Of a DNA stretch of 64,000 nucleotides, positions 71 to 59,251 are shown in pieces; position 1 is the stretch's first letter; each line of letters begins with the position of its first letter. Source of the stretch: a candidate division WOR-3 bacterium (GTDB lineage Bacteria > Hydrothermota > 32-111); NCBI GenBank assembly GCA_039804105.1, contig JBDRZU010000001.1, positions 224,001 through 288,000 on the forward strand. Direction: 5' to 3'. The position numbers and the translations under genes were made by a program. The notes below the pieces were generated by a model that saw only the letters and a list, made by a program, of their open reading frames with translations, was not told the DNA's origin and did not search any database.

Positions 71-98
71 TTGAAAATTATATTAATATGGTTATAAT
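71..98 (+). promoter_or_regulatory. sigma70-like promoter TTGAAA-N16-TATAAT for the SGNH gene (probably leaderless)
   Basis: -35 at 71-76, -10 at 93-98, ATG at 106. Confidence 0.6.
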
Positions 99-104
99 TG
101 TCAA
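77..104 (-). promoter_or_regulatory. sigma70-like promoter TTGACA-N16-TATAAT for the leftward gene
   Basis: perfect consensus hexamers on the minus strand (104-99 and 82-77). Confidence 0.7.
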
Positions 105-105
105 C

Positions 106-1278
106 ATGAAAAAATTTGTAAGAGTTTTATTGTATATATTTCTGATTTTGCTCATAGTTGAACTTGGATTAAAAATTTTTTTGATATTTTTTGAAAAGTA
201 TTCAAGTTGGGAACAAAGATCTAATCTTTTTATGGAGGATAGTTTACTTGGATGGAGAGGGGTACCTAATAGGAAAGTGATGGTAAAGACATTTGAGAGT
301 AAATTTTTAGTTGAAACAGATTCTTTAGGTTTCAGAAACACAATCTTCCCAAAGAAGAACAAAAAGGGCAAAAAGATATTGATGTATGGAGATTCATTCT
401 TGTGGGGCTACCATTTAAACAACGATGATTTGATATCGAGTATGTTATCAAAGGAGTTGAATGTTGAGGTAAAGAATTATGGTATGGTTGGATATGGAAC
501 AGATCAGGAGTACCTTTTATTCAAAGAGACAGTTGAGGATAATTCTGTTGTTGTGTTTTTGTTTTTCAACAACGATCTTGATGAACTTTTAAGAGATAAC
601 ATAGGAACGAAAGCATCAAAGCCAAAATTTATTTTAAAAAATGATTCAATCATTCTTTTAAACTATCCTGTTGATAGAAAAATTGTTGAACAAAAAGTTG
701 TTAATGAGAACAAATTTGAAAATTTTGGATTTTTGTTTAAGATCACAAGAACTTTAAAATTATCTCTGTACAAAACAAAAATTTATAGAGTGCTTTCATC
801 TTATTTACAGTACACAAGTTTTGGGAAGTTTTTATACGAAAAGAATCTCCTAGAGCCAGATCTTTTAAATCCCGATGAGGATGTTTTCAATTATATCAAC
901 TGGCAGGAATCAATAAAAATCTATGACCACCTGATGAAAAAAATAAAAAAAGAATGTGAATTGAGAGGATGTAAACTTCTTGTTTTTGTAATACCTTCAG
1001 AATGGACATATCAGCAAGATCTTATGAAAAAACTTGAAAAATTGGAACAACTTTATGGATATAATGATAGATATGAAGAGGTGATGGATAGTGTTCTGAA
1101 TGTTTTGAGAAGAGATAAGATAGATTATATTTATCCATTGGATGAGTTTCGTAAAATTGATACGAAAGTGAAATTGACAAAAAAGTTTGATAAACATTTT
1201 TCAAAAGAAGGCGCAAAATTCGTAAAAGATCTTTTGAAAACAAAAATTGAAGAGAGTTTAAAGGTTGACATATATTAA
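106..1278 (+). CDS. Membrane-anchored SGNH/GDSL hydrolase family protein (AlgX/AlgJ-like)
   Basis: N-terminal TM helix, GFRN, MYGDSF, GYGTDQ, NDL and D-x-H (DKH) motifs; start moved to MKKF at 106. Confidence 0.75.
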   Translation: MKKFVRVLLYIFLILLIVELGLKIFLIFFEKYSSWEQRSNLFMEDSLLGWRGVPNRKVMVKTFESKFLVETDSLGFRNTIFPKKNKKGKKILMYGDSFLWGYHLNNDDLISSMLSKELNVEVKNYGMVGYGTDQEYLLFKETVEDNSVVVFLFFNNDLDELLRDNIGTKASKPKFILKNDSIILLNYPVDRKIVEQKVVNENKFENFGFLFKITRTLKLSLYKTKIYRVLSSYLQYTSFGKFLYEKNLLEPDLLNPDEDVFNYINWQESIKIYDHLMKKIKKECELRGCKLLVFVIPSEWTYQQDLMKKLEKLEQLYGYNDRYEEVMDSVLNVLRRDKIDYIYPLDEFRKIDTKVKLTKKFDKHFSKEGAKFVKDLLKTKIEESLKVDIY

Positions 1279-1293
1279 GGTTAATGATATTAT
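1265..1293 (+). promoter_or_regulatory. sigma70-like promoter TTGACA-N17-TATTAT with extended -10 TG, buk-por operon
   Basis: -35 at 1265-1270, TG at 1285, -10 at 1288-1293. Confidence 0.6.
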
Positions 1294-1321
1294 AAAAATT
1301 TAAAAATAAAAAAGGAGTTAT

Positions 1322-2389
1322 ATGTATAAAATTTTAACGATCAATCCCGGTTCAACTTCTACAAAGATAGCGGTCTATGAGGATGACAAAGAAATTTTCA
1401 AAAAAACTATATCTCACCCTGAAAGTGAGATTTCAAAATACAAACACATAGTTGATCAGTATGAATTCAGAAGAGCAGCAATCGAGGATACATTAAAAGA
1501 GAACGGTTTTAACATAAAAGATTTTGATTGTTTTGTTGGAAGGGGAGGACTTGTAAAACCGATTCCTTCTGGAACCTACAAGGTAAATGAAAAAATGATA
1601 GAGGATTTGAAACATTCTCCCCTTGGAGAACATGCTTCAAATCTTGGTGGTATGATTGCATATGAGTTTGAAAAAGAGACTGGAAAACCCTCATACATAG
1701 TTGATCCTGTTGTTGTTGATGAGATGGATGATATTGCAAGGATAACTGGGTTCCCTGAGATCGAAAGGGTTTCAATCTTTCATGCTTTAAATCAAAAAGC
1801 GACAGCAAGAAGAGCAGCAAAAGATCTTGGAAAAAAGTATGAAGAAATAAATCTTATAGTCGTTCATCTTGGTGGTGGAATATCTATTGGTGCTCATAGA
1901 AATGGAAAGGTAATTGATGTGAACAATGCGCTCAACGGTGATGGTCCTTTTGCCCCAGAAAGGGCAGGTTCTGTTCCAGCATGGGGTCTGTATAAATTTA
2001 TTACTGAAACAAAAATAGAGGAAAAGGATTTCAAAAAACGTTTAGCTGGAAAAGCGGGTATAGTGGCACACCTTGGAACAAATGATATGAGAAAGGTTGA
2101 AGATGAAGTAAAAGCTGGAAACAAAGAGTATGAAAGAATCTATAAAGCGATGGCATACAATATAGGGAAATGGGTTGGAATGATGGCTGCAGTTTTACAT
2201 GGAAAGGTTGATGCGATAGCGATAACAGGTGGACTTGCCTATGACAAAATGTTTGTTGGGTGGATTGAAGATATGATATCATTTATCGCTACAATAAAGG
2301 TGTATCCGGGTGAAAACGAAATGCAGGCACTTGCTCTTGGTGGACTTAGAGTTTTAACGAAAGAGGAAAGTGCTAAAGAGTATAAATAA
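1322..2389 (+). CDS. buk: Butyrate (branched-chain carboxylate) kinase
   Basis: INPGSTSTK, GRGG, HASNLG, IFHALNQK, HLGGGIS, GPFAPER motifs; RBS AAGGAG. Confidence 0.95.
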   Translation: MYKILTINPGSTSTKIAVYEDDKEIFKKTISHPESEISKYKHIVDQYEFRRAAIEDTLKENGFNIKDFDCFVGRGGLVKPIPSGTYKVNEKMIEDLKHSPLGEHASNLGGMIAYEFEKETGKPSYIVDPVVVDEMDDIARITGFPEIERVSIFHALNQKATARRAAKDLGKKYEEINLIVVHLGGGISIGAHRNGKVIDVNNALNGDGPFAPERAGSVPAWGLYKFITETKIEEKDFKKRLAGKAGIVAHLGTNDMRKVEDEVKAGNKEYERIYKAMAYNIGKWVGMMAAVLHGKVDAIAITGGLAYDKMFVGWIEDMISFIATIKVYPGENEMQALALGGLRVLTKEESAKEYK

Positions 2390-2408
2390 AAGTTTAATAG
2401 GAGGAATA

Positions 2409-2960
2409 ATGCTTGAGATAAGAATTCATGGAAGGGGTGGACAGGGTGGTGTGATAGCATCTAAAATCCTTGCATATGCTTTTGCTATGGAAGGAAAATT
2501 TGTGCAGGCATTTCCTGAATTTGGAGTTGAAAGAAGAGGAGCCCCTGTAACTGCCTTTATAAGAGTTGCTGATCAAAGGATAAATATCCGTTCAAAAATT
2601 TATGAACCACAGCATCTTATAGTTCTTGAACCAACTCTGTTAAACGCTATAGATATCACGGAAGGTTTGAAAGAGGGTGGTTTTATCGTTATAAATACCA
2701 AGAAAAAACCCACCGAATTGAATATCAAAGCGAAAAATAGTAAAATTGCAACTGTTGACGCAACAGGTATTGCTTTAAAACATAGATTGGGTTCATCTGC
2801 AGCACCCATAGTAAATACAGCGATTTTGGGTGGTTTTGCAAAAGCAACAGGTTTTGTGAAAATAGAATCGATAGTTGATGCTATAAAAAAAGAGGTTCCA
2901 ATTAAACCGGATGAGAATGCTCAGGCAGCTATAGATGCATACAATTCTACAATAATGTAA
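2409..2960 (+). CDS. porG: 2-oxoacid:ferredoxin oxidoreductase gamma subunit
   Basis: EIRIHGRGGQG, FGVERRGAPV; AGGAGG RBS places start at 2409. Confidence 0.9.
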   Translation: MLEIRIHGRGGQGGVIASKILAYAFAMEGKFVQAFPEFGVERRGAPVTAFIRVADQRINIRSKIYEPQHLIVLEPTLLNAIDITEGLKEGGFIVINTKKKPTELNIKAKNSKIATVDATGIALKHRLGSSAAPIVNTAILGGFAKATGFVKIESIVDAIKKEVPIKPDENAQAAIDAYNSTIM

Positions 2961-2972
2961 TAAGGAGAATTT

Positions 2973-3269
2973 ATGAAAAGAGTTGGAAAAAAAATAATAT
3001 TTGAAAAAGAGAGTGATCTCCCTCCAAATGCTATGTCTCTCGGAACAACAGAGTTCAATGAAACTGGATCATGGAGAAACGAAAGACCGGTTGTTGACAA
3101 AGCAAAATGTATTGCTTGCGGTATCTGCTGGAAATATTGCCCTGATATGTCGATAAAAGAGGATTCTGAAGGGAAGGCAGATATTGATTATGTTTTTTGT
3201 AAAGGTTGCGGGATATGTGCAGCAGAATGCCCGGTAAAAGCAATAACAATGATTGAGGAGGAAAAATGA
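2973..3269 (+). CDS. porD: 2-oxoacid:ferredoxin oxidoreductase delta subunit (2x[4Fe-4S])
   Basis: TGSWR, two CxxCxxCxxxCP motifs including CKGCGICAAECP. Confidence 0.9.
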   Translation: MKRVGKKIIFEKESDLPPNAMSLGTTEFNETGSWRNERPVVDKAKCIACGICWKYCPDMSIKEDSEGKADIDYVFCKGCGICAAECPVKAITMIEEEK

Positions 3270-5307: not shown

Positions 5308-5319
5308 TAATTTAAAATT

Positions 5320-5343
5320 AAGGGGGGTTTATAACCCCCTTTT
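5320..5343 (+). terminator. Intrinsic terminator after buk-por operon
   Basis: AAGGGGGGTT-TAT-AACCCCCTTTT hairpin. Confidence 0.75.
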
Positions 5344-5352
5344 ATCAAAATT

Positions 5353-6411: not shown

Positions 6412-6416
6412 ATAAA

Positions 6417-7181: not shown

Positions 7182-7196
7182 TGGGTCAAGATTATA

Positions 7197-7224
7197 TTGA
7201 CTTTTGTCTTATTTAAAATAAAAT
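7197..7224 (+). promoter_or_regulatory. sigma70-like promoter TTGACT-N16-TAAAAT (probably leaderless)
   Basis: -10 ends 6 nt before ATG 7231; no SD. Confidence 0.6.
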
Positions 7225-7230
7225 AATATT

Positions 7231-7725
7231 ATGGAAAAAATTGAAATTTTTAGTAGATTGAAAAAAGCACTTTTAAATGAAAACAGAAAAGAGATTTTTG
7301 AAATTTATCTGTATACGATAAAGAGTGGATTCTCTGATAAAGAGATAGTCATAAAATTGATGGAATATATGTATAAAAGTAATGATAGCGAAAAGTATAT
7401 AAATCTTTTGAGATTATATGGTTCAAATACAAATTCCGATGCAGATATTGCATATTTTGTTGGATTCTATTTTTTGATGAAAAAATCATATTTCCATGCA
7501 CTCTGTTCATTTAAACTTGTAGATAAATACAGTATTTACTACACATTTGCACAAAAAAATATCCAGATGATCGAAAGTAACGAACTCAAACTTCTCACAA
7601 TAATCAAAAATGAATCGGATGGAAGAAATGAAAGATTAAAAAATATTGAAGAAAATGTTTATAAAACTGTTAACAGAATGATAAACTATGCGAAATCAAA
7701 CAAAGATGGATTTAAGGATTTTTGA
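7231..7725 (+). CDS. Hypothetical helical (TPR-like) protein
   Basis: 164-aa ORF heading a tightly overlapping operon; no diagnostic motif. Confidence 0.6.
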   Translation: MEKIEIFSRLKKALLNENRKEIFEIYLYTIKSGFSDKEIVIKLMEYMYKSNDSEKYINLLRLYGSNTNSDADIAYFVGFYFLMKKSYFHALCSFKLVDKYSIYYTFAQKNIQMIESNELKLLTIIKNESDGRNERLKNIEENVYKTVNRMINYAKSNKDGFKDF

Positions 7726-8456: not shown

Positions 8457-8464
8457 GAGGAAAT

Positions 8465-12864: not shown

Positions 12865-12875
12865 AGGAAATATTT

Positions 12876-14828: not shown

Positions 14829-14849
14829 CAAACTCCTCTTTTTCCATTG

Positions 14850-14877
14850 ATTTTACCTTTTTAAATCGATTAGTCAA
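14850..14877 (-). promoter_or_regulatory. sigma70-like promoter TTGACT-N16-TAAAAT
   Basis: upstream of ArsR-like gene. Confidence 0.6.
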
Positions 14878-14887
14878 CATCTTTCTA

Positions 14888-14915
14888 TTGACAATCACTA
14901 TTATAAATATATATT
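14888..14915 (+). promoter_or_regulatory. sigma70-like promoter TTGACA-N16-TATATT
   Basis: upstream of M6 protease operon. Confidence 0.6.
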
Positions 14916-14933
14916 TATATAAATGGAGGTTTT

Positions 14934-17900
14934 TTGAAAAAGATTTTTTGTTTTTATCTATCGATTTTCTTGTTTTTTACATTACTCAATTCTCTTGAAC
15001 TAAAAGATATTGAGTTTTTTAAAAAATATTCAAAAAAGAATGTAGATTTTTTCATAAAGGCAAATCAGAAAATATATGATTTAAAAAAAAGTAACCCTAT
15101 CTTTTTCCAGCCATCAAAAAGAAGTATTATAGATTTTCAAAAAAAGGGCCAGGATACAATAAGAGTTCTTGTTTTGAAAGTTGAATTTATTGAGGATACC
15201 ACATCTTTAACAACTGGTAACGGGAAAATGGATTTAAGAAGATCAATCGAAAGCATTTATGTAATAGATACGATCATTCAGGGAAGTGATACTCTCATCG
15301 ATACGAGTATGAATATCTACTATAAACCACCACACGATTCATTATATTTTTACCGACAGATGGAAGCTTTGAGAAACTATTATCTTGATGATTCAAGGGG
15401 TAAACTCTATATTGATTTTGAAATATACCCCAAAGGGCTTTATGATTGTTATACTGTAAAACATCAGATGCAGTTTTATGGTGATACTCTTAATATCGTA
15501 TATGGAATGTTTTATCTTTTAAGGGATGCTTTAAAAGAAGCCGAAATTTCTGGTGGAATAGATTTTAACAAATTTGATGCTGTTATCGTTTTCCATGCAG
15601 GAAGTATGTGGCAAACAGATTACTATGGAGATTCTCCTTTTGATCTACCTGCTGTTTATATTCAGGGAGCTTCCTACATTTTTGGTGAACCTATAACTGT
15701 TGGTGGTAAAAGTTTTGAGGATGGTATAATTTATTCTGAAACTGCTATACAAGACGGCGGTTATGCATTTATTCAAGGTGGACTTGTTCATGAATTCGCC
15801 CATCAACTTGGGATATTTGATATGTATGATACCTCAAACAGAAGGATGGGTATGGGTGGATGGAATTTACAGGGGACAGGTAACTGGAATCTTGCAGGCC
15901 TCGTGCCGCCACATCAGGGTGGTTATAATAGTGTGAGTAGATTCAATACAAAACCTAACAATGATTATTTTAATTGGATCTATTTTAACCAGACGAAAAC
16001 TGTATTTAAAGATACAACAGGTCTAAGAATCAAATATCTTGGTTCTGATGAGGACACTTCAATCAAATTTTATAAAATTCCATTAAATTCACACGAATAT
16101 TTCTTGATCGAAAATAGATACGCTTACTCTTCAAAGGATACTTTATCAAATGTTCCAGATTCGAATGGATTTAGAGTTTGGAAAGATGGAGTTCTTGTAA
16201 AGATTAACGATTACGATATATCATTACCATGTCCAATAGATTCAGGTGGTCTTGCGATTTATCATGTCGACGAAACTATCATCGTAAACGATTCTGGATA
16301 TAATATGATCAATGCTGGTCCTATACTCGGTGTTGATATGGAAGAAGCAGATAGAGTTCAGGATTTTGAACTCTCATTTTATGATGTTGTTGATTGGGAT
16401 AAAACATTTTATGGAACATATGAAGATCTTTTCAGATCTGGTGGTGTATCAAATCAGTTTACACCCAAAACATATCCAAACACAGATGCAAATAATTTCG
16501 GAAAAACACATATTTATATATACAACATATCGAGTTCAGATACTGTTATGTCTTTTTCTGTTTTGTTTGATTTAAGAAGAGAAGGGTTTCCGTTTAAGTT
16601 AAAATCAGCTCCTGATGTGAATAGTCCAAAAGTTCTAAAAAAAGATGGGAAATATTATATCCTAATTCAAACCGAAAATGGAGAGTTATACGCACTTGAT
16701 AAAGATGGGAAACCACTCTCTGGTTCAACAGGTATTGTAGGGAATTTTAATGTGAATTCTTTTTCATATTCAACGATTGCAATCGGAAATATTGCAAACA
16801 CTAATGGTGATGAAATATCATTTACCGACTATGATGGAAATGTTTACCTTCTTAGAACAGACACTTTAAATCCAGCAGGATATTTCTTACCATTAAAAAA
16901 CTCTCCGGTTAATCTTGATGGTAAAATTGTTTCTTCACCTGTACTTTATGATATAGATAAAGATGGTTTTGAAGAAGTTTTGATAACCTCTGAAAACATG
17001 TATCTTTATCTACTCGATTATGACTCATCATTAGGATTTTATAAAAAAGATTCAACATTTTTAAATTCCTCATCTTGGTCTTTACCTGTTGTTCTTGAAG
17101 ACAAAATAGTAACTCTTGGCTTTGATGGTGTTGTAAGATTTTTTGATTTTGATCTGAAAGAACTCTATTATTCAAAAACTGAATATCCATATCCGACAAC
17201 ATCATCGCCTATTGCTATTGATATTGATGGAGATTCTACAATTGAAATTGTTTTCATAAGAGGGGATGGGACTTTCTTTGTGGTTTCTTCACTTTCAGGA
17301 GAGATAAAAAGTTCGAAGAAACTTCCTTTTGATAACTTTTATTCTTCTCCTGTTCCAATAGATTATAACAACGATGGACTTTTTGAAATCGCATTGATAG
17401 TACAAAAAAATCTATATCTTCTTGATTGTAATGGAAACATTGTGAACGGTTTTCCCAAACGATTTTCTGATGAAATCCAATCTTCACCTTTATCTGTTGA
17501 CCTTGATGATGATGGTATAAACGAGATTCTTGTACATACAAAAAATGGACTCCTTGTTTCATTTTCAAATAAAACTCAAACACCAGGATTTCCTTTAGCA
17601 ACTGGCCAATATTCTAATTCAACACCACTTGTTTGTGATCTCGACAATGATTCACTTGTTGACATAATTGCCTGTGTTGATTCAACAATTATTGCTTATG
17701 AGTTAAAATCTAAAATTAATGGTAAAAATTGGAACAGTTTACATTATTCTGATTCAAACAATAGATATTTTAAATATTCGTCTAACAAAATTTCAGGAGA
17801 TCTGCTTTTAGTTGAAGATGGAAACAATTATATGTATCCTAATCCAACAAAAGGTAAAATAAAATTAAGATTTTCAACTCAAACAGCAAAAGAATATTCT

Positions 17901-18086
17901 TTTATGGTATTTGATCAAAGTAAAACATTGAAATATTCCTCTCCTACTTATAAAGCAAAAGTAGGAGTTAATGAAGTGGATCTTTCTTTAGATTTTCTTG
18001 CCCCGGGTTTTTACAAACTCAGATTAATGCTCACCGATGGAGAGAAAAATCTTTATAGAAATTTTAATTTTGGAGTTATAAGATGA
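14934..18086 (+). CDS. Secreted M6 (immune inhibitor A)-like metalloprotease with FG-GAP repeats and T9SS-type C-terminal domain
   Basis: TTG start with GGAGG; signal peptide; IVFHAG, HEFAHQLGIFD, EYFLIENR; repeated D-x-D-x-DG-x-x-E; YPNP...PGFY tail. Confidence 0.8.
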   Translation: MKKIFCFYLSIFLFFTLLNSLELKDIEFFKKYSKKNVDFFIKANQKIYDLKKSNPIFFQPSKRSIIDFQKKGQDTIRVLVLKVEFIEDTTSLTTGNGKMDLRRSIESIYVIDTIIQGSDTLIDTSMNIYYKPPHDSLYFYRQMEALRNYYLDDSRGKLYIDFEIYPKGLYDCYTVKHQMQFYGDTLNIVYGMFYLLRDALKEAEISGGIDFNKFDAVIVFHAGSMWQTDYYGDSPFDLPAVYIQGASYIFGEPITVGGKSFEDGIIYSETAIQDGGYAFIQGGLVHEFAHQLGIFDMYDTSNRRMGMGGWNLQGTGNWNLAGLVPPHQGGYNSVSRFNTKPNNDYFNWIYFNQTKTVFKDTTGLRIKYLGSDEDTSIKFYKIPLNSHEYFLIENRYAYSSKDTLSNVPDSNGFRVWKDGVLVKINDYDISLPCPIDSGGLAIYHVDETIIVNDSGYNMINAGPILGVDMEEADRVQDFELSFYDVVDWDKTFYGTYEDLFRSGGVSNQFTPKTYPNTDANNFGKTHIYIYNISSSDTVMSFSVLFDLRREGFPFKLKSAPDVNSPKVLKKDGKYYILIQTENGELYALDKDGKPLSGSTGIVGNFNVNSFSYSTIAIGNIANTNGDEISFTDYDGNVYLLRTDTLNPAGYFLPLKNSPVNLDGKIVSSPVLYDIDKDGFEEVLITSENMYLYLLDYDSSLGFYKKDSTFLNSSSWSLPVVLEDKIVTLGFDGVVRFFDFDLKELYYSKTEYPYPTTSSPIAIDIDGDSTIEIVFIRGDGTFFVVSSLSGEIKSSKKLPFDNFYSSPVPIDYNNDGLFEIALIVQKNLYLLDCNGNIVNGFPKRFSDEIQSSPLSVDLDDDGINEILVHTKNGLLVSFSNKTQTPGFPLATGQYSNSTPLVCDLDNDSLVDIIACVDSTIIAYELKSKINGKNWNSLHYSDSNNRYFKYSSNKISGDLLLVEDGNNYMYPNPTKGKIKLRFSTQTAKEYSFMVFDQSKTLKYSSPTYKAKVGVNEVDLSLDFLAPGFYKLRLMLTDGEKNLYRNFNFGVIR

Positions 18087-27866: not shown

Positions 27867-27894
27867 ATTATATATTTTTAAAATTTTTTTTCAA
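27867..27894 (-). promoter_or_regulatory. sigma70-like promoter TTGAAA-N16-TATAAT (pckA)
   Basis: minus-strand hexamers at 27894-27889 and 27872-27867. Confidence 0.6.
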
Positions 27895-27927: not shown

Positions 27928-27955
27928 TTGAAAAAAAGTGAATTTAATCTAAAAT
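27928..27955 (+). promoter_or_regulatory. sigma70-like promoter TTGAAA-N16-TAAAAT (fhs)
   Basis: hexamers at 27928 and 27950. Confidence 0.55.
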
Positions 27956-29610: not shown

Positions 29611-29638
29611 TTGACTTAGAAAAAATATTAAATAAAAT
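29611..29638 (+). promoter_or_regulatory. sigma70-like promoter TTGACT-N16-TAAAAT (mutase operon)
   Basis: hexamers at 29611 and 29633. Confidence 0.6.
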
Positions 29639-32552: not shown

Positions 32553-32984
32553 TTGAAAATCTCTATAGGAAGTGATCATAGAGGATTCAAAGTAAAAGAA
32601 GAGATAAAAAAGTGCACTGAGTTTGAGTTTATTGATAGAGGGACATTTTCTGAAGAGAGTGTCGATTATCCTGACTATGTGAAAGCGGTTGCACAGGATG
32701 TTCTTGAAAAGAGAGTTGATTTTGGAATTTTAATCTGTTATTCGGGAATCGGAATGTCAATTGCAGCAAACAAAATAAAGGGAATAAGGGCTGCCTATGT
32801 TATAGATCAAGAATTTGCATCACTTGCAAGAAAACATAATGATGCAAACATACTTGTACTTGGTGCAAAGGTTATTGAAGGCAAAGATCTTTGTAAAATA
32901 GTAAAAGTTTTTGCTGAAGAAAAGTTTGAAGGTGGAAGACACCAAAAAAGGTTGGATAAAATTTGCTCTTTTGAAAATAATTGA
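32553..32984 (+). CDS. rpiB: Ribose-5-phosphate isomerase B
   Basis: GSDHRG, SVDYPD, ANKIKGIRAA, HNDAN, FEGGRH. Confidence 0.93.
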   Translation: MKISIGSDHRGFKVKEEIKKCTEFEFIDRGTFSEESVDYPDYVKAVAQDVLEKRVDFGILICYSGIGMSIAANKIKGIRAAYVIDQEFASLARKHNDANILVLGAKVIEGKDLCKIVKVFAEEKFEGGRHQKRLDKICSFENN

Positions 32985-33008
32985 CATTAAAAAAAAAAGA
33001 ATTAAAAT
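32981..33008 (+). promoter_or_regulatory. sigma70-like promoter TTGACA-N16-TAAAAT (tRNA-Ala operon)
   Basis: 13 nt upstream of tRNA 5' end. Confidence 0.7.
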
Positions 33009-33021
33009 AAAAAATTAGTAT

Positions 33022-33094
33022 GGGGCTATAGCGCAGTTGGGAGCGCGTTTGACTGGCAGTCAAAAGGTCACGGGTTCGACTCCCGTTAGCTCCA
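33022..33094 (+). tRNA. tRNA-Ala(GGC), CCA not encoded
   Basis: cloverleaf; acceptor GGGGCTA/TAGCTCC with G3:U70; anticodon arm TTTGA-CTGGCAG-TCAAA; GGTTCGACTC T-loop. Confidence 0.97.
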
Positions 33095-33118
33095 TTTTAA
33101 CATCAGGAGGTTAGTTAA

Positions 33119-35099: not shown

Positions 35100-36447
35100 G
35101 AAAATTTTATTTTTCTTATTCTGTTTAAATTTTATAACCCTGCTTTATTCAAATGAAAGCAGGGTTTTTTTTAGTGGTAACAATTTTGTATCAAATGAAA
35201 TAATAGATTCGATTTTTAAAGATCAAGGCCTAAAACAGGGAATTGAAGAAATATTGAATCTCTATTTGAACAGTGGATATCCTTTCATAACAATAGAAAT
35301 AGATTCTGTTTTGAATTATGGTAATTTTGATATCTTTTATTTAACAATAAAGGAGAATGGGAAATTTTTTATTGAAAGAGTGGAAAATGTTTACAATGTA
35401 AAAAGTTCATATCTGAATGGAATTTTAAGACTGAAAAATAAAGTTTTCAAAGAGAGTTATATAGTTGAAAAATTAAAAAATCTTTCAAATAATCAAGATT
35501 TACTAATAGACACAACCTTTTATGTAGAAAAAATTACTGATAGTTCTGTAATTATCAAAACAAAAATAGAGCAGGGGAAACTATCTTCAATTTCAGGAAT
35601 TTTGACATCATCGATCGATTCATTCAACTTGAACGGATTTTTAAACATATTTTTAAAGAGTCCTTTTGGCTATTTTGATATTTACTCAATCGACTATCAA
35701 AGAATAAACAAAAATAACACTTATCTTTCTGCAAATTTTGAATTTCCTTATATTTTTTCAACTCCTTTGGGTTTTTTTGGTAATATTAATTTTGAATCAA
35801 TAGAAACCTTTTATACTAAACAAGAGTATAATGCTGGTATAAAAGTTTTTATTACAGAAAGGTTTTCTGCTTTAACAGGTTATGGAAAAAGGAGTATTAA
35901 TTATATTGCAACCGATTCTTTTGATATTGTTGAAAATTCTTTGATTGGAGGATTAGATTATTTTTCAAAGAACTTTTTCTTTTCGAATAAATCAACCATC
36001 AATTATACTGATTTGAAAAACAGTTGGGCTTATATGATTCCAAAAATTGGATATAAAAACAATATAAAAATTTTTGGATATTGGTTCTATTTTGATTCTT
36101 ATTTGAATTTTGCTTCAAATTTAAAAGATTACATGAAAGTCCAGATTGGTGGAAATAAAAATATAAAAGGTTATCCTGAGAATTTTTTAAAGGTATTTAA
36201 TTTCTTTTATCAGGAAGTAAAAATTGGGTATTCTGGAAAAAATTTTGAGACGGGGATATTTTTTGATAATATTTTTTACAACATTGAACAGTTAAAAAAT
36301 TATAGGTCCTTTAAAAATCTATTCTCTTATGGATTATTTTTGACTGCGAATATTTCAAATTACAAAACATCCCTCTATTATGCATTGAATAAGGATTTAA
36401 CACCATTGGAGGGGAGAGTGCATCTTTTGTTTTCTATCTATTTCTGA
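35083..36447 (+). CDS. Omp85/TamA-like outer-membrane protein (POTRA + barrel); probable CTG start
   Basis: frame open from 35077; AAGGAG at 35067; signal peptide; FSGN and LYLNSGYPF POTRA-like; IGGNKNIKGY loop; terminal YF. Start position uncertain. Confidence 0.65.
   Translation: MLHLNKKILFFLFCLNFITLLYSNESRVFFSGNNFVSNEIIDSIFKDQGLKQGIEEILNLYLNSGYPFITIEIDSVLNYGNFDIFYLTIKENGKFFIERVENVYNVKSSYLNGILRLKNKVFKESYIVEKLKNLSNNQDLLIDTTFYVEKITDSSVIIKTKIEQGKLSSISGILTSSIDSFNLNGFLNIFLKSPFGYFDIYSIDYQRINKNNTYLSANFEFPYIFSTPLGFFGNINFESIETFYTKQEYNAGIKVFITERFSALTGYGKRSINYIATDSFDIVENSLIGGLDYFSKNFFFSNKSTINYTDLKNSWAYMIPKIGYKNNIKIFGYWFYFDSYLNFASNLKDYMKVQIGGNKNIKGYPENFLKVFNFFYQEVKIGYSGKNFETGIFFDNIFYNIEQLKNYRSFKNLFSYGLFLTANISNYKTSLYYALNKDLTPLEGRVHLLFSIYF
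35136..35172 (+). terminator. Intrinsic terminator inside the 5' coding region of the TamA-like gene
   Basis: 11-bp perfect stem AACCCTGCTTT/AAAGCAGGGTT, T8 run at 35165-35172. Confidence 0.75.
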
Positions 36448-36952
36448 TGTATATATTTTTTATCTCTCCAACATACAATCTATGAAAATCTTTTTTTGGA
36501 TAGTTATCAAGGAGACTTTTATTTAAAAAGTTCTTTTCTTTAAGATCATTAAAATAAAGTTTTTCACAGACAATTCCTATTTTCATCTGCTCATAAAAAA
36601 TAATATTTTCTTTTAGAAAAATTGGTTTTAATCCTGTTTCTTTAATTTTGTCGTGTTCTCTTCCTGAATATTTCCCACAAAAACTCAATACTTTTTTATC
36701 TTTTTTGTAGAAAGAAGAAAGTGTAAAATAATTATTTTTTTCAACAAATTGATAGGTATACCGTGTTGGTCTGATAAAAATAAATGCTACTGGCTTATTC
36801 CATAATATTCCAAAACAACCCCATGATGCCGTCATACAGTTGAATTTTTCCTTGTTTCCAGCAGTGATTAAGACCCACTCATCATCCCAAAGTTTAAAAA
36901 TGTTGTTCTTAAACTCTTTTGGATCTATTTTTTTAAATTTTTCATTGAACAT
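36434..36952 (-). CDS. Flavin reductase-like protein
   Basis: LITAG...NCMTASWG, FIRPTRYT, CGKYSGR..DK, HRLYVGEI. Confidence 0.88.
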   Translation of the reverse strand: MFNEKFKKIDPKEFKNNIFKLWDDEWVLITAGNKEKFNCMTASWGCFGILWNKPVAFIFIRPTRYTYQFVEKNNYFTLSSFYKKDKKVLSFCGKYSGREHDKIKETGLKPIFLKENIIFYEQMKIGIVCEKLYFNDLKEKNFLNKSLLDNYPKKDFHRLYVGEIKNIYIRNR

Positions 36953-36969: not shown

Positions 36970-36997
36970 ATTATATTCTCTAAATTTCAAAGGTCAA
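36970..36997 (-). promoter_or_regulatory. sigma70-like promoter TTGACC-N16-TATAAT
   Basis: upstream of flavin reductase RBS. Confidence 0.6.
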
Positions 36998-37208: not shown

Positions 37209-37220
37209 AAAAATTTCATA

Positions 37221-37248
37221 TTGAAAATTTTCATTGAAATTATAAAAT
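37221..37248 (+). promoter_or_regulatory. sigma70-like promoter TTGAAA-N16-TAAAAT
   Basis: between repeat copy 1 and the GGAGG RBS of the LVIVD gene. Confidence 0.55.
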
Positions 37249-37267: not shown

Positions 37268-39436
37268 ATGAAAATCAAACTTTTATTATCATTTTTTATT
37301 TTAATAATGCTTTCTATGTTTTTAAATGCAGACACACAAATATATGAAAATCAATTTATAAAAAAACAACAAGGAAAAGATATTTTTCCATATAAGTGGG
37401 CAACTGATAGTTTAAATGTTAATGGTATTGGATATTTACCTTCATTTCGTGAAACGAATAAGATAAAATTGATTGGTTCTCTTGCTTATGTTTGTTCTTA
37501 TACTCACTTAATAATTGTTGATGTATCTAATACTCATAAACCACAACTTTTAGGTTATTTTGAGTTTGACAATGTAGCAATAAGTTTAGATGTTTCTGGA
37601 GGATATGCATATATAGCAGATCTTATGGGTGGACTTAAAATTGTTGATGTAAGTACTCCTGAAAACCCAACTTTGGTTGCCACTTATGATTCTTTAAATC
37701 AGGTCAATAGTGTTTGTGTTGCTAATGATTATGCTTATGTCTTAGATTATTACAATGGACTTACAATTTTAACAGTTTCTGATCCTGCAATGCCGAAAAA
37801 AGTTGGAAGTTGTTCTTTAGTTAATAGTTGTTATGATATAACAGTAAATGATGGTATCGCATATATCGCAGCCGGTCAAAATGGATTAAGAGTAGTAGAT
37901 GTTTCTGATCCTTCAAAACCTGTTGAAATAGGTTTTTTGGATACACCAAATTATGCTTTCTCAGTAAAATACTATAACAAGAATGTTTACATAGCAGATG
38001 GTAATTCTGGTTTAAGAATAATTGATGTTTCAAATCCAAAAAATCCTTCAGAGATAGGATATTACGATACTTCAGATTACGCCAGAGATGTTTTCTTTTA
38101 TGATAATTTAGTTTTTATAGCAGACTACGCTGGACTTTCAATTATTGATGCAACAGATCCATCTTTTCCTATAGAAATGAGTTATCTACTTACTGATGGT
38201 TTTATGGTTGGGGTTTTTGTTCAAAACAATTATGCTTATGTATGTGATGGATTACTCGGTGTGAAATTTGTTAATGTTTCCGATCCCAAAAAACCTTTTG
38301 TGGAAGGGTATTTTGACACTCCGGATTACTCTTACATTATTTCTATAAATGGTAATTTTGCATTCACCAATGAATTTAATTTTTTGAAAGTTTTATCAAT
38401 ATCAAATCCCACCAACATAAGAGAAATAAATTATTTTGAAACTAATGATGAAATATATGGTATTTATGTTTCCAATGGATATGCTTTTTTAGCAAATTCA
38501 AGAGAAGGTTTACGAATTCTGGATATTTCAGATGTCACAAATATAACCGAAATTGGACACTATGATACTCCAGGATATGCTGGAGATGTTTTTGTTTCTG
38601 GAAATTACGCTTATGTTGCTGATGACACTTCGGGATTAAGGATAATCGATATAACAAGTTTAACAGACCCAATAGAGGTTGGGAGTTTTGATACTCCTGG
38701 CTATGCTTATAGAGTTTATGTTTCTGGTAACTATGCCTATGTTGCAGATATGACTCAGGGATTAAGAATTATTGATGTTTCAGATCCCAATTATCCAGTT
38801 GAAGTAGGATATTATAAACCTTCAGGTGATGTTCTTGGTGTATGGGTAAAAGATGACTATGCTTATGTTACTGCTTATGAATATGGTTTAAAAATAGTTG
38901 ATATAAGTGATCCTTCAAATCCTGTTGAAATTGGTTCTATTGACACACCGGGAGAAGCACAATATGTTAAAGTTTATGGAAACTTTGCTTTTGTTGCAGA
39001 TGGAGATTATGGATTGAGGGTGATTGATATATCAGATCCTACAAAACCTGTAGAAGTTGGTTATTATGTAACATCTGGACAAGTAATAAATTTTGATTTT
39101 TCAAATTATAATTTTTATCTTTTAGATTATTTTACAGGGATATACTCGGTCAATTTTATAAGTGCGGGGCTTGGTTTTGATAGAGACAAATCAAATAAAA
39201 ATATTGATGATACATCAAAATTAAAAGTAAATAAGAGTTTTATTTCATATATGTGTTCTACAGGTGAAAACAAATTTTCTGTTTATGATATAACAGGTAA
39301 ACTGATATACGATTCATCGAATCAGAGAATAGGGGAGCATATTTATTCAACAAAGGGTTTAAAATCAGGGGTATATTTTATAAAATTTAAAGATGGTCAT
39401 AGCGAGATAGATAGGAAGATGGTTGTTATCAGATGA
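37268..39436 (+). CDS. Secreted LVIVD-repeat protein with T9SS-type C-terminal domain
   Basis: signal peptide; about 13 ~42-aa repeats (VSGNYAYVAD...GLRIIDVSDP..P.EVG); VYDITGK...SGVYFIK...KMVVIR tail. Confidence 0.9.
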   Translation: MKIKLLLSFFILIMLSMFLNADTQIYENQFIKKQQGKDIFPYKWATDSLNVNGIGYLPSFRETNKIKLIGSLAYVCSYTHLIIVDVSNTHKPQLLGYFEFDNVAISLDVSGGYAYIADLMGGLKIVDVSTPENPTLVATYDSLNQVNSVCVANDYAYVLDYYNGLTILTVSDPAMPKKVGSCSLVNSCYDITVNDGIAYIAAGQNGLRVVDVSDPSKPVEIGFLDTPNYAFSVKYYNKNVYIADGNSGLRIIDVSNPKNPSEIGYYDTSDYARDVFFYDNLVFIADYAGLSIIDATDPSFPIEMSYLLTDGFMVGVFVQNNYAYVCDGLLGVKFVNVSDPKKPFVEGYFDTPDYSYIISINGNFAFTNEFNFLKVLSISNPTNIREINYFETNDEIYGIYVSNGYAFLANSREGLRILDISDVTNITEIGHYDTPGYAGDVFVSGNYAYVADDTSGLRIIDITSLTDPIEVGSFDTPGYAYRVYVSGNYAYVADMTQGLRIIDVSDPNYPVEVGYYKPSGDVLGVWVKDDYAYVTAYEYGLKIVDISDPSNPVEIGSIDTPGEAQYVKVYGNFAFVADGDYGLRVIDISDPTKPVEVGYYVTSGQVINFDFSNYNFYLLDYFTGIYSVNFISAGLGFDRDKSNKNIDDTSKLKVNKSFISYMCSTGENKFSVYDITGKLIYDSSNQRIGEHIYSTKGLKSGVYFIKFKDGHSEIDRKMVVIR

Positions 39437-39738: not shown

Positions 39739-39766
39739 TTGAAAAGAAGGGATTTGTGGTTATAAT
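39739..39766 (+). promoter_or_regulatory. sigma70-like promoter TTGAAA-N16-TATAAT (polysaccharide operon)
   Basis: hexamers at 39739 and 39761. Confidence 0.65.
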
Positions 39767-40433: not shown

Positions 40434-40444
40434 AAAGGATTTTT

Positions 40445-42839: not shown

Positions 42840-42841
42840 TA

Positions 42842-44853: not shown

Positions 44854-44854
44854 A

Positions 44855-52414: not shown

Positions 52415-52448
52415 AAATTTTTCTTGCATTCATCTTCATTCATCCTAC

Positions 52449-52476
52449 TTGAATCTTGTTTCAAAATGATTACCAT
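52449..52476 (+). promoter_or_regulatory. Weak sigma70-like promoter TTGAAT-N16-TACCAT
   Basis: upstream of oligopeptidase RBS. Confidence 0.4.
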
Positions 52477-52500
52477 ATATTGAATATGAAAGGAGTGGTG

Positions 52501-54606: not shown

Positions 54607-54607
54607 A

Positions 54608-55366: not shown

Positions 55367-55465
55367 TTTTCCACATTTTGTTTAAATAATTTTTTATTAT
55401 TTTTCCGATAGTTATACTACTTTTCCACATATTTTACCCATCATTATCCACATTATTTATCCACA
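55367..55465 (+). promoter_or_regulatory. Cluster of four co-oriented DnaA boxes
   Basis: TTTTCCACA 55367-55375 and 55421-55429; TTATCCACA 55444-55452 and 55457-55465. Confidence 0.75.
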
Positions 55466-55480
55466 ACATGAGAACAAAAA

Positions 55481-55519
55481 TTGGGGACGGTGCTTGACTT
55501 TTTGACATTTTTTTTGTAA
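55481..55519 (-). repeat. Dispersed repeat copy 3 (inverted; A8 instead of A7)
   Basis: TTGGGGACGGTGCTTGACTTTTTGACATTTTTTTTGTAA on + strand. Confidence 0.95.
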
Positions 55520-55557
55520 ATACATTAAATTAAATAAGTTATAGACCATTCAATTTT

Positions 55558-56631
55558 TTATTTTTGGTAAATTTTTATCGATTTTTTCCGATTTTTAATA
55601 TTTTGCTCGATAACTTTCTTTGAATTACTGAAAATACTTTTATAAAAGTCGTAAGGATAAAACATTGTAGAATCATCAACAGGATCAGAAATTTCAAATG
55701 CCCCAATACCTTCATAATAATTTTCATTTATAAAACCTTTTACTTTACATGGACCGGTGAAAATTACTCCAGGGATAAAACATTCATCGTAGAGTGGCTC
55801 ATAAAAAAGATAGATAGAATCATCTTTACTTCTTATAAGAAAACCGTATTCGTAGATTTTACGCGATAAGAGTGATTTTCTGTATGTTATAGTGTCAAGA
55901 AAAGTGTTTTTATATATCATCGATTTTTTGTCTTTAAGATTATGATATTGTAAAAAGTTGAATTCTTGATTTTTAAAATGACCTGAAACAAGAAATTTAT
56001 CATCACCAAGAAAAATACCACTCCAGATCCATCTATTCTTAATATCAAGTTTCATATTTCCCCATTGATGATCAAACCATCCATACTTGTTTGATATTTT
56101 TGTTAGATCAATATTGACTTTATCTGTTTTGATAAAACCAGTTAATTTTTTTGAAATCAAAGAATAATATCCTGCTGTGTCTTTTATATGTCCCATAATA
56201 ATATAGCCGCTATCTCCATTTATGAGCATTTTATTGTCATAATCAAAATTTATCGAACATTGTAAATCGTTAAGATAAAAATTTATATCAAAACTAAGAT
56301 TTTCAAAATCATTATTGTCTTTGAAATTTTTCATACCAGAATAGATTGGGACATTAGTTTCATAATAATAGAAAGTATCCTTTAAAATATCTTTGATATA
56401 TATGTTTGAGAAATATGAATTAGCATCAAAATATTGAAAAACGATTACAAAATAATCATATTTTTTTTGCTGATTTTCAGTTAAAATATAGGTGTAATAC
56501 CAATTGATTTGACCTTTATGAATCTGGACATCTTTTGTTAAATCAAGAGTATATTTTTGATAATGATGCGCACAATTTATTAAAAGAAACATAAAAAAAA
56601 TGGAAAAGATTTTTTCTAATCTCAGTTTCAT
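55558..56631 (-). CDS. Lipoprotein with AttH/CrtC-like (lipocalin-like) domain
   Basis: lipobox LINC; NWYY, YYSL, GWFDHQWG, WIWSG, YEGIGAFE. Confidence 0.65.
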   Translation of the reverse strand: MKLRLEKIFSIFFMFLLINCAHHYQKYTLDLTKDVQIHKGQINWYYTYILTENQQKKYDYFVIVFQYFDANSYFSNIYIKDILKDTFYYYETNVPIYSGMKNFKDNNDFENLSFDINFYLNDLQCSINFDYDNKMLINGDSGYIIMGHIKDTAGYYSLISKKLTGFIKTDKVNIDLTKISNKYGWFDHQWGNMKLDIKNRWIWSGIFLGDDKFLVSGHFKNQEFNFLQYHNLKDKKSMIYKNTFLDTITYRKSLLSRKIYEYGFLIRSKDDSIYLFYEPLYDECFIPGVIFTGPCKVKGFINENYYEGIGAFEISDPVDDSTMFYPYDFYKSIFSNSKKVIEQNIKNRKKSIKIYQK

Positions 56632-56638
56632 AGATTTT

Positions 56639-56666
56639 ATATTATCAAAACAATTATTTATGTCAA
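56639..56666 (-). promoter_or_regulatory. sigma70-like promoter TTGACA-N16-TAATAT (probably leaderless)
   Basis: -10 ends 7 nt before ATG 56631. Confidence 0.55.
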
Positions 56667-56697
56667 TAACTATCAATAATGTTATAGCTTATCTTGA

Positions 56698-56730
56698 TTG
56701 GGGACGGTGCTTGACTTTTTGACATTTTTT
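56698..56730 (-). repeat. Dispersed repeat copy 4 (inverted, lacks terminal TTAC)
   Basis: TTGGGGACGGTGCTTGACTTTTTGACATTTTTT on + strand. Confidence 0.95.
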
Positions 56731-56738
56731 GATCTCTG

Positions 56739-56766
56739 TTGAAATATTTTGGAGTAAATATATAAT
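56739..56766 (+). promoter_or_regulatory. sigma70-like promoter TTGAAA-N16-TATAAT
   Basis: -10 ends 7 nt before ATG 56774 of the pseudogene. Confidence 0.55.
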
Positions 56767-56773
56767 TTCAAAA

Positions 56774-57755
56774 ATGGAAAAAGAGAAAATTTTGTTGATA
56801 TAGTAATATCCTTAGGAATTTTCTTGGTAGTTTTAGGATATACAGAAATCGACCCAAATCTAAAAAAATTTATATATTCGTTCCATATGCCTTTGTTTTT
56901 AATCATAATCATATAAAGATTAATAATTCCTTATTTTTTTTATTTTAGTTTTTTGACTTATCTATTTTGGATCTTTGTAACGGGGAGAGATGGAATCGGA
57001 CTTGCTATGAAATTGTATATCTAAAAACTATAATTGGAACTTTAATAGGCTTATCACATAACGATTATTTTGTTCACAATATATCAATTATGGTTTTATA
57101 TGTTTATTTTTGATTGAATTGCTTTATTTTTATATTTCCAAGATAAAAAATCAGGTTTTACTTTTAATTGTTTCAATTATTTTGAGTTTTATAGGTTATG
57201 TTGTCACAAAAAGATTACATTTAGTGTAAATATACGGATTTGCAAAGTTTTAATAACACAAGTGTTTTATTTTTTATGATTTATCATTAAGAAAAACAAC
57301 TTTATAGTTAATTTAAGGCGATTAACTATATTTAAAAATATAGTTTAACTTTAATTTTTTTTATTTTAAATCAATTTTTGACTAAATTTAACTGATTTGT
57401 CGGTTTTGTTGGAAATCTTTTTGGAAATAAACTTTCTAATATATTATTTAAATGGTATAATTGGGAAGTTTATGATCATTTTTATTTCGTTAACGATTGA
57501 AAAATTAATTTGTTATCAAGAAGTACACTTTATATTTTAGATTTCTATGAACAGGTTTTGACTTTGATATTTGGTGTTATTTTATTTTTGTTTAAAATGG
57601 AACCTGAAGTGTACAAGAGTATTTTGATAGTGAATATAATTTTTTCAATGGGAGTATGTCTTGGAATAGGAATAATGAACAATTTAATTTTATTGTGCAA
57701 ATTAAAAATAAATTTCAAAAATAGAACAACTAGCATAAGAGTTAAATCCGATTAA
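56774..57755 (+). pseudogene. Degraded acyltransferase-3 (OafA-like) O-acyltransferase
   Basis: ATG 56774 is out of frame with RENFVD..LGIFLVVLG..IYSFHMPLF; stop at 56914 then RLIIPYFF..LTYLFW; further broken hydrophobic fragments; 3' limit approximate. Confidence 0.78.
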
Positions 57756-57811
57756 AAGAGTGTTTTAGGTTGAGATGATTAAAGGTATTTTTGTTGAAAT
57801 ATACATACTCA

Positions 57812-57839
57812 ACTTTACATAATATATATTATCGGGAAT
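57812..57839 (-). other. dif: dif site (XerC/XerD chromosome dimer resolution)
   Basis: minus strand ATTCCCGATAA-TATATA-TTATGTAAAGT; 11-6-11 architecture; 23/28 match to B. subtilis dif as recalled (ACTTCCTAGAA TATATA TTATGTAAACT); intergenic. Confidence 0.85.
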
Positions 57840-57877
57840 TTTGTATATTATTTATTTTGCGAAGAAAATATATATTT

Positions 57878-58639
57878 TTATTTAATTATTCCCTGTACTT
57901 TCTTCTCATTATACTGTTGAGTTAAAGGATCAACAGCACCTTCAAGCATATTTTTGTAAACATATGCCTGTTGAACAAAACTTGAATTTGGGAATCTGTA
58001 TATTATTTCTTCGTAACAGTTAATTGCGTCTTCGATTTCATATTTCATTTCGTAAACTCTTCCCATTCCTAAATATGCTTCAGGTGTGTAAGCGTTTTCA
58101 GGTACATTTGTTGTGGCTTGCTTGTAGTACACGAGTGCTGAATCTATTTGGAGAGATCCCTCAAATGCCTTTGCTATACCTATGTAAGCAGCACATTTTA
58201 ATTCATCGAGTCCATATTTGTATTTGATAAACTGTTTGAAATTTTTAATCGCATCATTGTAGTATTTTTGAGAATTCTGTTGATCTATTGCTCCAAGATT
58301 CAAATTACACATTCCGATATAATAAGTCGCTTTTTTAGCAGAATTTGTTCCATAGTATGATTGTTTGATGTTTGTAAACAGTTCGAGTGCCTGTTTGAAA
58401 TCACCAGAAACAAATATATCTATAGCACCTGTCAATTCAAGGGATGAATTCCTTTCTTTCGAAACAAAACTTGATCTGATTGAAATCGCTATAATTATAA
58501 TAAGAATAAATGCTGAAAAACCGATAAAAAGATATCTCCAATTTAATCTTGACCAATTAATAAATTCACCAACAGCTTCAATAAACTTATCTTTTTTGAG
58601 TTCGGATTTTTTTACTTTAACCTTTTTAACTATTGTCAT
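57878..58639 (-). CDS. Single-pass membrane TPR protein (YfgM-like)
   Basis: KKSELKKDKF, TM helix, TPR units; AGGAG RBS. Confidence 0.75.
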   Translation of the reverse strand: MTIVKKVKVKKSELKKDKFIEAVGEFINWSRLNWRYLFIGFSAFILIIIIAISIRSSFVSKERNSSLELTGAIDIFVSGDFKQALELFTNIKQSYYGTNSAKKATYYIGMCNLNLGAIDQQNSQKYYNDAIKNFKQFIKYKYGLDELKCAAYIGIAKAFEGSLQIDSALVYYKQATTNVPENAYTPEAYLGMGRVYEMKYEIEDAINCYEEIIYRFPNSSFVQQAYVYKNMLEGAVDPLTQQYNEKKVQGIIK

Positions 58640-58660
58640 TTGCTACTCCTTTTTTGTAAG

Positions 58661-58733
58661 TGCCCCTGACAAGAATCGAACTTGTGGCCCTCTGTTTAGG
58701 AAACAGATGCTCTATCCACTGAGCTACAGGGGC
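58661..58733 (-). tRNA. tRNA-Arg(CCT), CCA not encoded
   Basis: GCCCCTG/CAGGGGC acceptor; TAGCTCAGTGGATAGAGC D arm; TCTGT-TTCCTAA-ACAGA; GTTCGATTC. Confidence 0.96.
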
Positions 58734-58738
58734 ATTTT

Positions 58739-59251
58739 TTAAAAGTGAATTATACTTGATATTTGCCAATTTTCAAGATTTTTTCTACCGTTTAAAAAAT
58801 CGAGTTCGATCAAAAATGATATTCCTGATACATTTCCACCTGATTTTTCAATAAGTTTTGTTGCTGCTTTCATCGTGCCACCTGTTGCAAGTAGATCATC
58901 AACAAGAAGTATATTCTCCCCTTTTGATACAGCATCTGTATGCATCTCTATTGTCGCTGTTCCATATTCAAGAGTATAAGTTTCCTCAAAAGTTTTATAA
59001 GGTAATTTTCCTTTTTTTCTTATAGGTATAAATCCTTTGTTATATTTGTTTGCTATAGCGATTCCAAAGATAAAGCCTCTTGATTCAATTCCAGCTATTT
59101 TATCAATTTTTGAAAAATCAAAAGGTTCACTCATTTTGTCAACAGCATATTTAAAGGCATAAGGATCAAGTATTACAGGTGTAACATCTTTAAAGATTAT
59201 TCCTTTTACTGGAAAATCAGGTATGTCTCTTATAAAACTTTTAAGTTCCAT
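58739..59251 (-). CDS. apt: Adenine phosphoribosyltransferase
   Basis: IPDFPVKGIIFKD, IESRGF, RKKGKLP, LEYG, VDDLLATGGT; GGAGG RBS gives start 59251. Confidence 0.96.
   Translation of the reverse strand: MELKSFIRDIPDFPVKGIIFKDVTPVILDPYAFKYAVDKMSEPFDFSKIDKIAGIESRGFIFGIAIANKYNKGFIPIRKKGKLPYKTFEETYTLEYGTATIEMHTDAVSKGENILLVDDLLATGGTMKAATKLIEKSGGNVSGISFLIELDFLNGRKNLENWQISSIIHF
58749..58776 (-). promoter_or_regulatory. sigma70-like promoter TTGAAA-N16-TATAAT for tRNA-Arg, inside the apt 3' end
   Basis: -10 ends 15 nt upstream of tRNA 5' end. Confidence 0.6.

Follow-up and report, generated by a model that had tools for sequence, protein, structure and literature searches.

The stretch of DNA analysed here, called the window, is 64 kb long and lies on one of the two contigs (G000:C1:224001-288000) of a candidate division WOR-3 bacterium, the source genome, which has a size of 1.81 Mb, a GC content of 30 % and is 85 % complete. 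Its genes are preceded by predicted housekeeping promoters in which the spacer that separates the -35 from the -10 box is mostly 16 bp long and not 17 bp, and this spacer length is the subject of the present study. A sequence-only reading of the window had listed 17 sites, 16 of them with a 16-bp spacer, in which sites on the minus strand were named by the first base of the -35 box. All 16 match TTGA(A/C)N-N16-TAnnnT exactly, and the predicted promoter TTGACA-N17-TATTAT at 1265..1293 (+), located before the butyrate kinase gene (1322-2389), is the sole site with 17 bp, as had been stated.

The predicted promoter TTGAAA-N16-TATAAT at 71..98 (+) is followed by an ATG at 106, 7 nt downstream, and the gene ending at 1278 would be leaderless. 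The perfect consensus announced for the window, TTGACA-N16-TATAAT, was found at 77..104 (-); the gene that it precedes starts near 56 and extends beyond the edge of the window. These two near-consensus promoters on opposite strands overlap almost fully, thus the two divergent genes should compete for polymerase. Leaderless geometry was also present at TTGACT-N16-TAAAAT (7197..7224, +; ATG at 7231, 6 nt downstream) and at TTGACA-N16-TAATAT (56639..56666, -; ATG 7 nt downstream). A divergent pair is formed by TTGACT-N16-TAAAAT at 14850..14877 (-) and TTGACA-N16-TATATT at 14888..14915 (+), the latter before an open reading frame (ORF, 14934-18086) with an M6-like metalloprotease domain below the cut-off. 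Predicted promoters of metabolic genes are TTGAAA-N16-TATAAT (27867..27894, -) before phosphoenolpyruvate carboxykinase, TTGAAA-N16-TAAAAT (27928..27955, +) before formate-tetrahydrofolate ligase and TTGACT-N16-TAAAAT (29611..29638, +) before the N-terminal subunit of methylmalonyl-CoA mutase. Others precede the ORF at 36434-36952 (TTGACC-N16-TATAAT, 36970..36997, -), the ORF at 37268-39436 (TTGAAA-N16-TAAAAT, 37221..37248, +), a polyprenyl glycosylphosphotransferase-like gene (39840) at the head of a run of ORFs on the same strand (TTGAAA-N16-TATAAT, 39739..39766, +) and an oligopeptidase B-like gene with the probable start 52501 (TTGAAT-N16-TACCAT, 52449..52476, +). Both tRNA genes of the list have a predicted 16-bp promoter: TTGACA-N16-TAAAAT at 32981..33008 (+) ends 12 nt before tRNA-Ala(GGC) (33021-33095), and TTGAAA-N16-TATAAT at 58749..58776 (-) lies 15 nt before tRNA-Arg(CCT) (58660-58733). 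The location just upstream of a gene, claimed for all sites, holds except for TTGAAA-N16-TATAAT at 56739..56766 (+), where the frame of an ATG at 7 nt stops after 9 codons and no intact gene follows; the stretch of about 1.1 kb behind it (56774-57870) contains many stops and is possibly a decayed gene or an unannotated RNA.

A two-block model blind to this site list placed 14 confident sites among the 21 upstream regions of the window, 13 with a spacer of 16 bp and one with 17 bp. The loose pattern, counted over all 64 kb including coding DNA, had 36 matches at 16 bp, 23 at 17 bp and 15-32 at other lengths, thus the window alone would not have proved a 16-bp rule.

Spacer lengths in the genome and the phylum

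For the whole genome, 535 upstream regions were taken from a simple gene caller and fitted with the two-block model, which had a flat spacer prior from 13 to 21 bp and was seeded on the consensus boxes. The model assigned a weight of 0.73 to a spacer of 16 bp, 0.24 to 17 bp and less than 0.01 to every other length, hence 97 % of the weight lies within 17 ± 1 bp. Among 316 confident sites, 238 had 16 bp and 76 had 17 bp, so that the modal spacer is not 17 bp and the 16-bp share is 76 % (238/314; 95 % confidence interval 71-80 %); the 13 of 14 sites in the window are compatible with this share (p = 0.11). None of the 238 calls was also readable as a 17-bp site. The pattern TTGA[AC]N..TA[AT]AAT occurred in the upstream regions 103 times at 16 bp, 30 times at 17 bp and 0-10 times at other spacers, whereas dinucleotide shuffles gave 1-2 matches per spacer; the histogram proposed as a check thus peaks at 16 bp. 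Counts on both strands of the whole genome, independent of gene calls, agreed: TTGACN..TAWAAT had 97 matches at 16 bp and 31 at 17 bp, whereas each of the remaining lengths between 8 and 30 bp had 5-14, and the perfect consensus was present 27 times at 16 bp, four times at 17 bp and 0-3 times elsewhere. A spacer of 15 bp was at background (9 matches), and the split between 16 and 17 bp was the same on both contigs and both strands. The statement that promoters almost always use 16 bp is therefore right about the dominance of this length and wrong about its extent, about 94 % in the site list; about three in four ordinary promoters have a 16-bp spacer.

The boxes resemble the canonical ones. 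The learned -35 matrix (T.99 T.99 G.94 A.96 C.58 A.50/T.46) resembles TTGACA, on which consensus the model had been seeded, and the -10 matrix (T.97 A.98 T.56 A.78 A.81 T.96) resembles TATAAT; a TG extension was present in 47 of the 238 16-bp sites, and the 6 nt after their -10 box had a GC content of 15 %. The 16- and 17-bp classes share their logos, being alike at eight of nine tested positions and different at the first spacer base only, as one sigma factor reading both would give. The weaker -35 box TTGAA was rarer at 17 bp (11/64) than at 16 bp (67/202; p = 0.018, a post hoc choice), which is expected if 17 bp is the poorer fit. For the 16S gene, the two predicted promoters are both of the 16-bp class; of 42 genes for tRNA or tmRNA, 15 had a candidate promoter with 16 bp and four had one with 17 bp.

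Start codons provide a view on the register. Start codons of long ORFs at 6, 7, 8 and 9 nt past the -10 box were counted 23, 21, 10 and 6 times for 369 pattern matches with 16 bp (60 together) and 11, 3, 9 and 0 times for 195 matches with 17 bp (23 together); for spacers of 14, 15, 18, 19 and 20 bp 0-3 were found, and distances of 0-5 nt almost never occurred. These clusters look like leaderless messages that start at the usual distance past the -10 box, and this clustering supports the -10 register of the predicted promoters. In a survey of 49 species, the mapped start sites lie around a centre 7 bp downstream of the -10 box (PMC12641261). Leaderless geometry is present in about 30 % of the confident promoters (72/238 with 16 bp, 19/76 with 17 bp); a second group of ATG distances in the source genome, at 18-35 nt, is separated from these by a gap from 10 to 17 nt.

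The identical exact-pattern count was applied to genomes of other phyla. In a set drawn from the phylum of a Peptoniphilaceae record, the Bacillota, 17 bp exceeded 16 bp in all 81 genomes (3224 vs 781 matches), thus the count is not biased towards 16 bp. The Desulfobacterota, drawn from the phylum of a Desulfaltia record, comprised 121 genomes, of which 18 had at least 30 matches; 16 of these 18 favoured 17 bp (734 vs 349 matches) and none favoured 16 bp twofold. G182 and G207 were part of this draw and fell below the threshold of 30 matches. A few genomes with small counts leaned to 16 over 17 bp (19/6, 16/8 and 11/1), hence there is some tolerance of 16 bp elsewhere. E. coli was uninformative as a control, with three vs one exact matches.

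Within the source genome's own phylum, presumably TA06/WOR-3, 150 genomes were counted for 16 and 17 bp; 21 with fewer than 30 matches were set aside and 129 kept. Sixteen exceeded 17 bp in 86 genomes, in 48 of them at least twofold, and 32 genomes had the reverse twofold excess. Families are labelled f1 to f35, f1 being that of the source genome. All 13 genomes of f1 had a 16-bp share of 0.60-0.76. Rich in 16 bp were f24 (0.90-0.94; 1739 vs 150 matches, 12:1), f14 (0.89-0.91) and f26 (0.78-0.81), near parity were f2 (0.41-0.57, overall 0.46) and f13 (0.52), and rich in 17 bp were f4 (0.26-0.39), f8 (0.04-0.20) and f16 (0.02-0.06; 82 vs 2298 matches, 28:1 for 17 bp). On a tree of 67 genomes of the phylum, rooted on E. 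coli, one large clade was entirely 16-leaning and its sister entirely 17-leaning, f16 formed a separate 17-only branch among mixed families, and sister clades with supports of 0.999 and 1.0 differed in spacer as blocks. The majority state changed at least six times; since relatives are not independent, the counts over the phylum describe only a few events. Spacer preference is inherited along the tree within the phylum. The lineage-level shift that the window had suggested is thus borne out: it is genome-wide, present in all f1 genomes, follows the tree and is absent from the Bacillota controls.

One genome, G008 of family f9, went further, with a dominant spacer of 15 bp (291 matches vs 54 at 16 bp and 22 at 17 bp), a length that had 19 or fewer matches in every other genome of the phylum. 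Its first 100 matches at 15 bp were diverse and not a repeat; judged by eye, many of the listed sites had the TG two bases before the -10 box, not one. On small counts (9/27, 13/26 and 7/18) 15 bp was also the commonest spacer of the three f3 genomes G001, G074 and G107.

The polymerase as a proposed cause

The reading that we favour, at a probability of a little under six in ten, is an RpoD holoenzyme whose favoured distance between the boxes has moved towards 16 bp. Housekeeping promoters of the ordinary sigma70 type (TTGAcw, TAwaaT) would be read by a single group-1 sigma factor, RpoD, in a holoenzyme that would favour 16 bp and still accept 17 bp, not 15 or 18 bp. Sigma domain 4 would rest on the beta flap about 1 bp (~4 Å) closer to sigma domain 2, by several substitutions and no change in length, in the linker between sigma regions 3.2 and 4.1, the C-terminal helix of sigma, or the flap or beta-prime surfaces that hold it. 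The promoters would then follow via one-base insertions and deletions in their AT-rich spacers, and repeated moves of the spacer setting would have occurred in the phylum. For E. coli it has been described that sigma domain 4 has to shift by ~4 Å on a 16-bp spacer (10.1101/188680) and that spacer length rotates the module of sigma domain 4 and flap tip (PMC10216364). The sequence-only reading had proposed a shifted geometry between sigma domains 2 and 4. For this proposal the lineage shift speaks, and it is the best reading of the data; the geometry itself is what we infer, and its simplest version, a change in length, fails.

The search for the causal change covered RpoD regions 2-4 in 71 genomes and, in 71 genomes each, the C-terminal 548 residues of beta and the N-terminal 430 of beta-prime. 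The RpoD of the source genome (C2:110513-112246, 577 aa) is its sole RpoD and scored above the RpoD_Cterm cut-off. Several results of this search weigh against the favoured reading. The protein aligned free of gaps to four other group-1 sigma factors, which we take from their PDB codes to be of B. subtilis, S. aureus, C. difficile and Caulobacter type. Regions 2.4 to 4.2 span 154 residues in E. coli, and the same length was found in the source genome and in 55 of 66 RpoD proteins of the phylum, 16- and 17-types alike. No insertion or deletion in sigma linker, flap or zipper tracked the spacer, the zipper block being seen in part, and a shorter sigma or flap as a simple change in geometry is thereby rejected. 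The sigma70 position 533, acidic in 29 of 30 outgroup sequences, has lost the acid in most 16-users and kept it in most strict 17-users: 11 of 12 genomes with an acidic residue had a 16-bp share below 0.30, 50 of 54 without it had at least 0.30, and the four highest carry arginine. As a cause this loss failed, with |t| 2.8 at rank 49 of 4209 features against a null 95 % maximum of 4.7. Only two of four independent pairs agreed (p = 0.5), with G012 as an exception, and the three small-count Desulfobacterota that lean to 16 bp keep the acid; the position is retained as a lead only. Two features passed the null threshold, an aliphatic residue at sigma 613 (t 5.5) and a basic residue at beta-prime 313 (t -4.8); on the tree, however, there are only two changes of each, and the former separates f16 from its relatives by leucine vs phenylalanine alone. 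In sum, a causal change for the 16-bp preference was not found in the compared parts of sigma, beta and beta-prime: the proposed alignment of RpoD and beta flap compared these regions without an indel that tracks the spacer or a single residue that convincingly explains the trait.

An insertion in beta after the flap varied from 76 to 149 residues without relation to the spacer. In this comparison, in the analyses of position 533 and of state changes and in that of the 4209 features, the 15-type G008 was counted as a 16-type. Its intact RpoD (582 aa) is the only one in which region 3 has a gap of one residue, followed by two insertions of a single residue each. The RpoD of the source genome has KALEKLAH in region 4.2 where E. 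coli has KALRKLRH, and R596 and R599, presumably the activator contacts of E. coli sigma70, are lost throughout the f1 sequences examined. In another genome, the RpoB match (G005:C37:7126-8766) belongs to a reported open frame of 2612 aa that contains one TAG, which may be a beta-beta-prime fusion or a quirk of reporting.

Other explanations and the meaning of the shift

DNA twist, in which a standard polymerase works on a more relaxed or overwound chromosome and 16 bp give the angle of 17 bp in E. coli, is an unlikely explanation, the strongest of those that compete. In a model and data for E. coli, relaxation favours short spacers by a factor of about two per base when superhelical density changes by 0.03 (PMC9303308); the same source states that 16-nt spacers depart from the supercoiling model, and another gives spacer length only a minor effect on supercoiling sensitivity (PMC8695583). 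Reverse gyrase, a mark of hot habitats, was found in 15 of 77 genomes, 11 of them in the 17-type clade, which would fit thermal unwinding favouring a longer spacer. However, the positives extend over 15-, 16- and 17-types, with G008 and the 16-leaning G010, G055 and G051 among them, while the strongest 16-types lack it and f16 is 17-only with reverse gyrase in 0 of 5 genomes; as a cause of the 16-bp spacer it is ruled out by this distribution. GyrA was detected in 143 of 150 genomes of the phylum, in 16- and 17-type families alike, and the source genome encodes both GyrA and GyrB, without a full reverse gyrase. A loss of gyrase in 17-types, suggested by two of five genomes, was ruled out on the 150. 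The topoisomerase comparison, one of gene content and not of supercoiling level, thus gives no support to the alternative of the sequence-only reading, a tuning to a different twist. In f16 three GyrA matches (G099:C148:5272-7449, G084:C350:1906-4080 and G064:C116) start at model position 63-64 in frames of 1264, 1264 and 1120 aa, possibly GyrB-GyrA fusions. For G020 (f8, 99 % complete, four contigs) no GyrA candidate was found, although this genome has reverse gyrase and GyrA occurs in related genomes.

We regard it as improbable, and rank it behind twist, that two readers share the promoters, in that plain RpoD would serve the 17-bp class, and a short second sigma factor, or RpoD together with an accessory protein, the 16-bp class. 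A second factor of the sigma70 family with intact regions 2 and 4 (G000:C1:679304-680107, 267-283 aa) is encoded in the source genome, and similar short sigma factors occur in G008, G147 and the three f3 genomes. In the latter no RpoD-sized sigma was found, each having only two sigma70 region-2 matches; there, with the short sigma alone, the commonest spacer is 15 bp, which is at background in the source genome. Promoters of rRNA and tRNA genes are normally served by the group-1 sigma factor, and here the rRNA and most tRNA promoters belong to the 16-bp class, while the logos shared by both classes also speak against two readers. Accessory proteins similar to CarD or DksA were not detected in the source genome by a regular-expression motif search, a weak test.

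Drift under a tolerant polymerase, to which 16 and 17 bp are equal, with a ratio determined by biased deletion in runs of A/T, comes third and is likewise doubtful. In its favour are the AT content of the spacers (83 %), a predicted promoter that has 16 bp in G039 and 17 bp in G007 through one extra T, and the families near 1:1, f2 and f13, together with the Desulfobacterota at about one third 16 bp. Drift does not easily yield the opposite extremes of f24 and f16 in one phylum, nor a background level of 15 and 18 bp in the source genome, and tolerance of 16 bp would itself need a polymerase change relative to strict 17-types. An artefact that arises when motifs are chosen by eye in AT-rich sequence, with which the loose count over the window would agree, has next to no probability and is ruled out by the genome-wide counts far above the shuffles on both contigs and strands, the model with none of its 16-bp calls readable as 17, the leaderless register and the return of 17 bp in Bacillota under the identical count.

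The shifted holoenzyme has to be seen beside the known promoter systems. With the canonical sigma70/sigmaA promoter (TTGACA-N17-TATAAT) the promoters of the source genome share both hexamers, the optional TG extension and a group-1 RpoD, and the leaderless ATG peak at 6-9 nt, read from sequence, would fit the canonical start about 6-8 nt past the -10 box. Of the features tested, the modal spacer, 16 and not 17 bp, is the only one that is not of sigma70 type. According to the survey of 49 species, which used a model trained on E. coli, most spacers are 17 bp long (PMC12641261). The stringently controlled rRNA P1 promoters of E. coli also have a 16-bp spacer read by a group-1 sigma holoenzyme; there, 16 bp is suboptimal, the discriminator is rich in GC and transcription begins 9 nt past the -10 box (10.1101/188680, PMC5101437). 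In the source genome, in contrast, 16 bp is the majority, an AT-rich discriminator follows and the peak of leaderless starts lies at 6-7 nt, so that its promoters do not look like the strained stringent geometry. Motif matches to DksA and RelA/SpoT were absent from the source genome, a weak test in a genome of this completeness. Whole lineages that depart from the promoter layout of E. coli are known from the Bacteroidota, with housekeeping promoters of the -33/-7 type and a longer spacer, and from the Campylobacterota, which lack a -35 box. In those lineages the recognised sequences change, whereas here they remain canonical and the shift concerns the distance alone. In the open full-text literature, which mostly lacks subscription journals, no lineage was found to be described with a modal housekeeping spacer of 16 bp.

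Promoter models incorporate the 17-bp optimum, which is regarded as almost universal, and predictors that reward it will misjudge these genomes. On a wider claim we are evenly divided, namely that the box-to-box ruler is an evolvable trait: with 15, 16 and 17 bp in one phylum, canonical boxes and a nearly unchanged sigma length, a few substitutions in sigma domain 4, flap and linker would reset the spacing in hundreds of promoters. A phylum with 15, 16 or 17 bp between the same boxes offers matched natural variants for the question whether sigma, core or twist sets the distance. The phylum also shows how the cis code of a whole genome can shift along with its reader, via the mixed state of 16 and 17 bp seen in several families. 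If the ruler is indeed evolvable, such pairs of sigma and core would be natural, partly orthogonal transcription systems.

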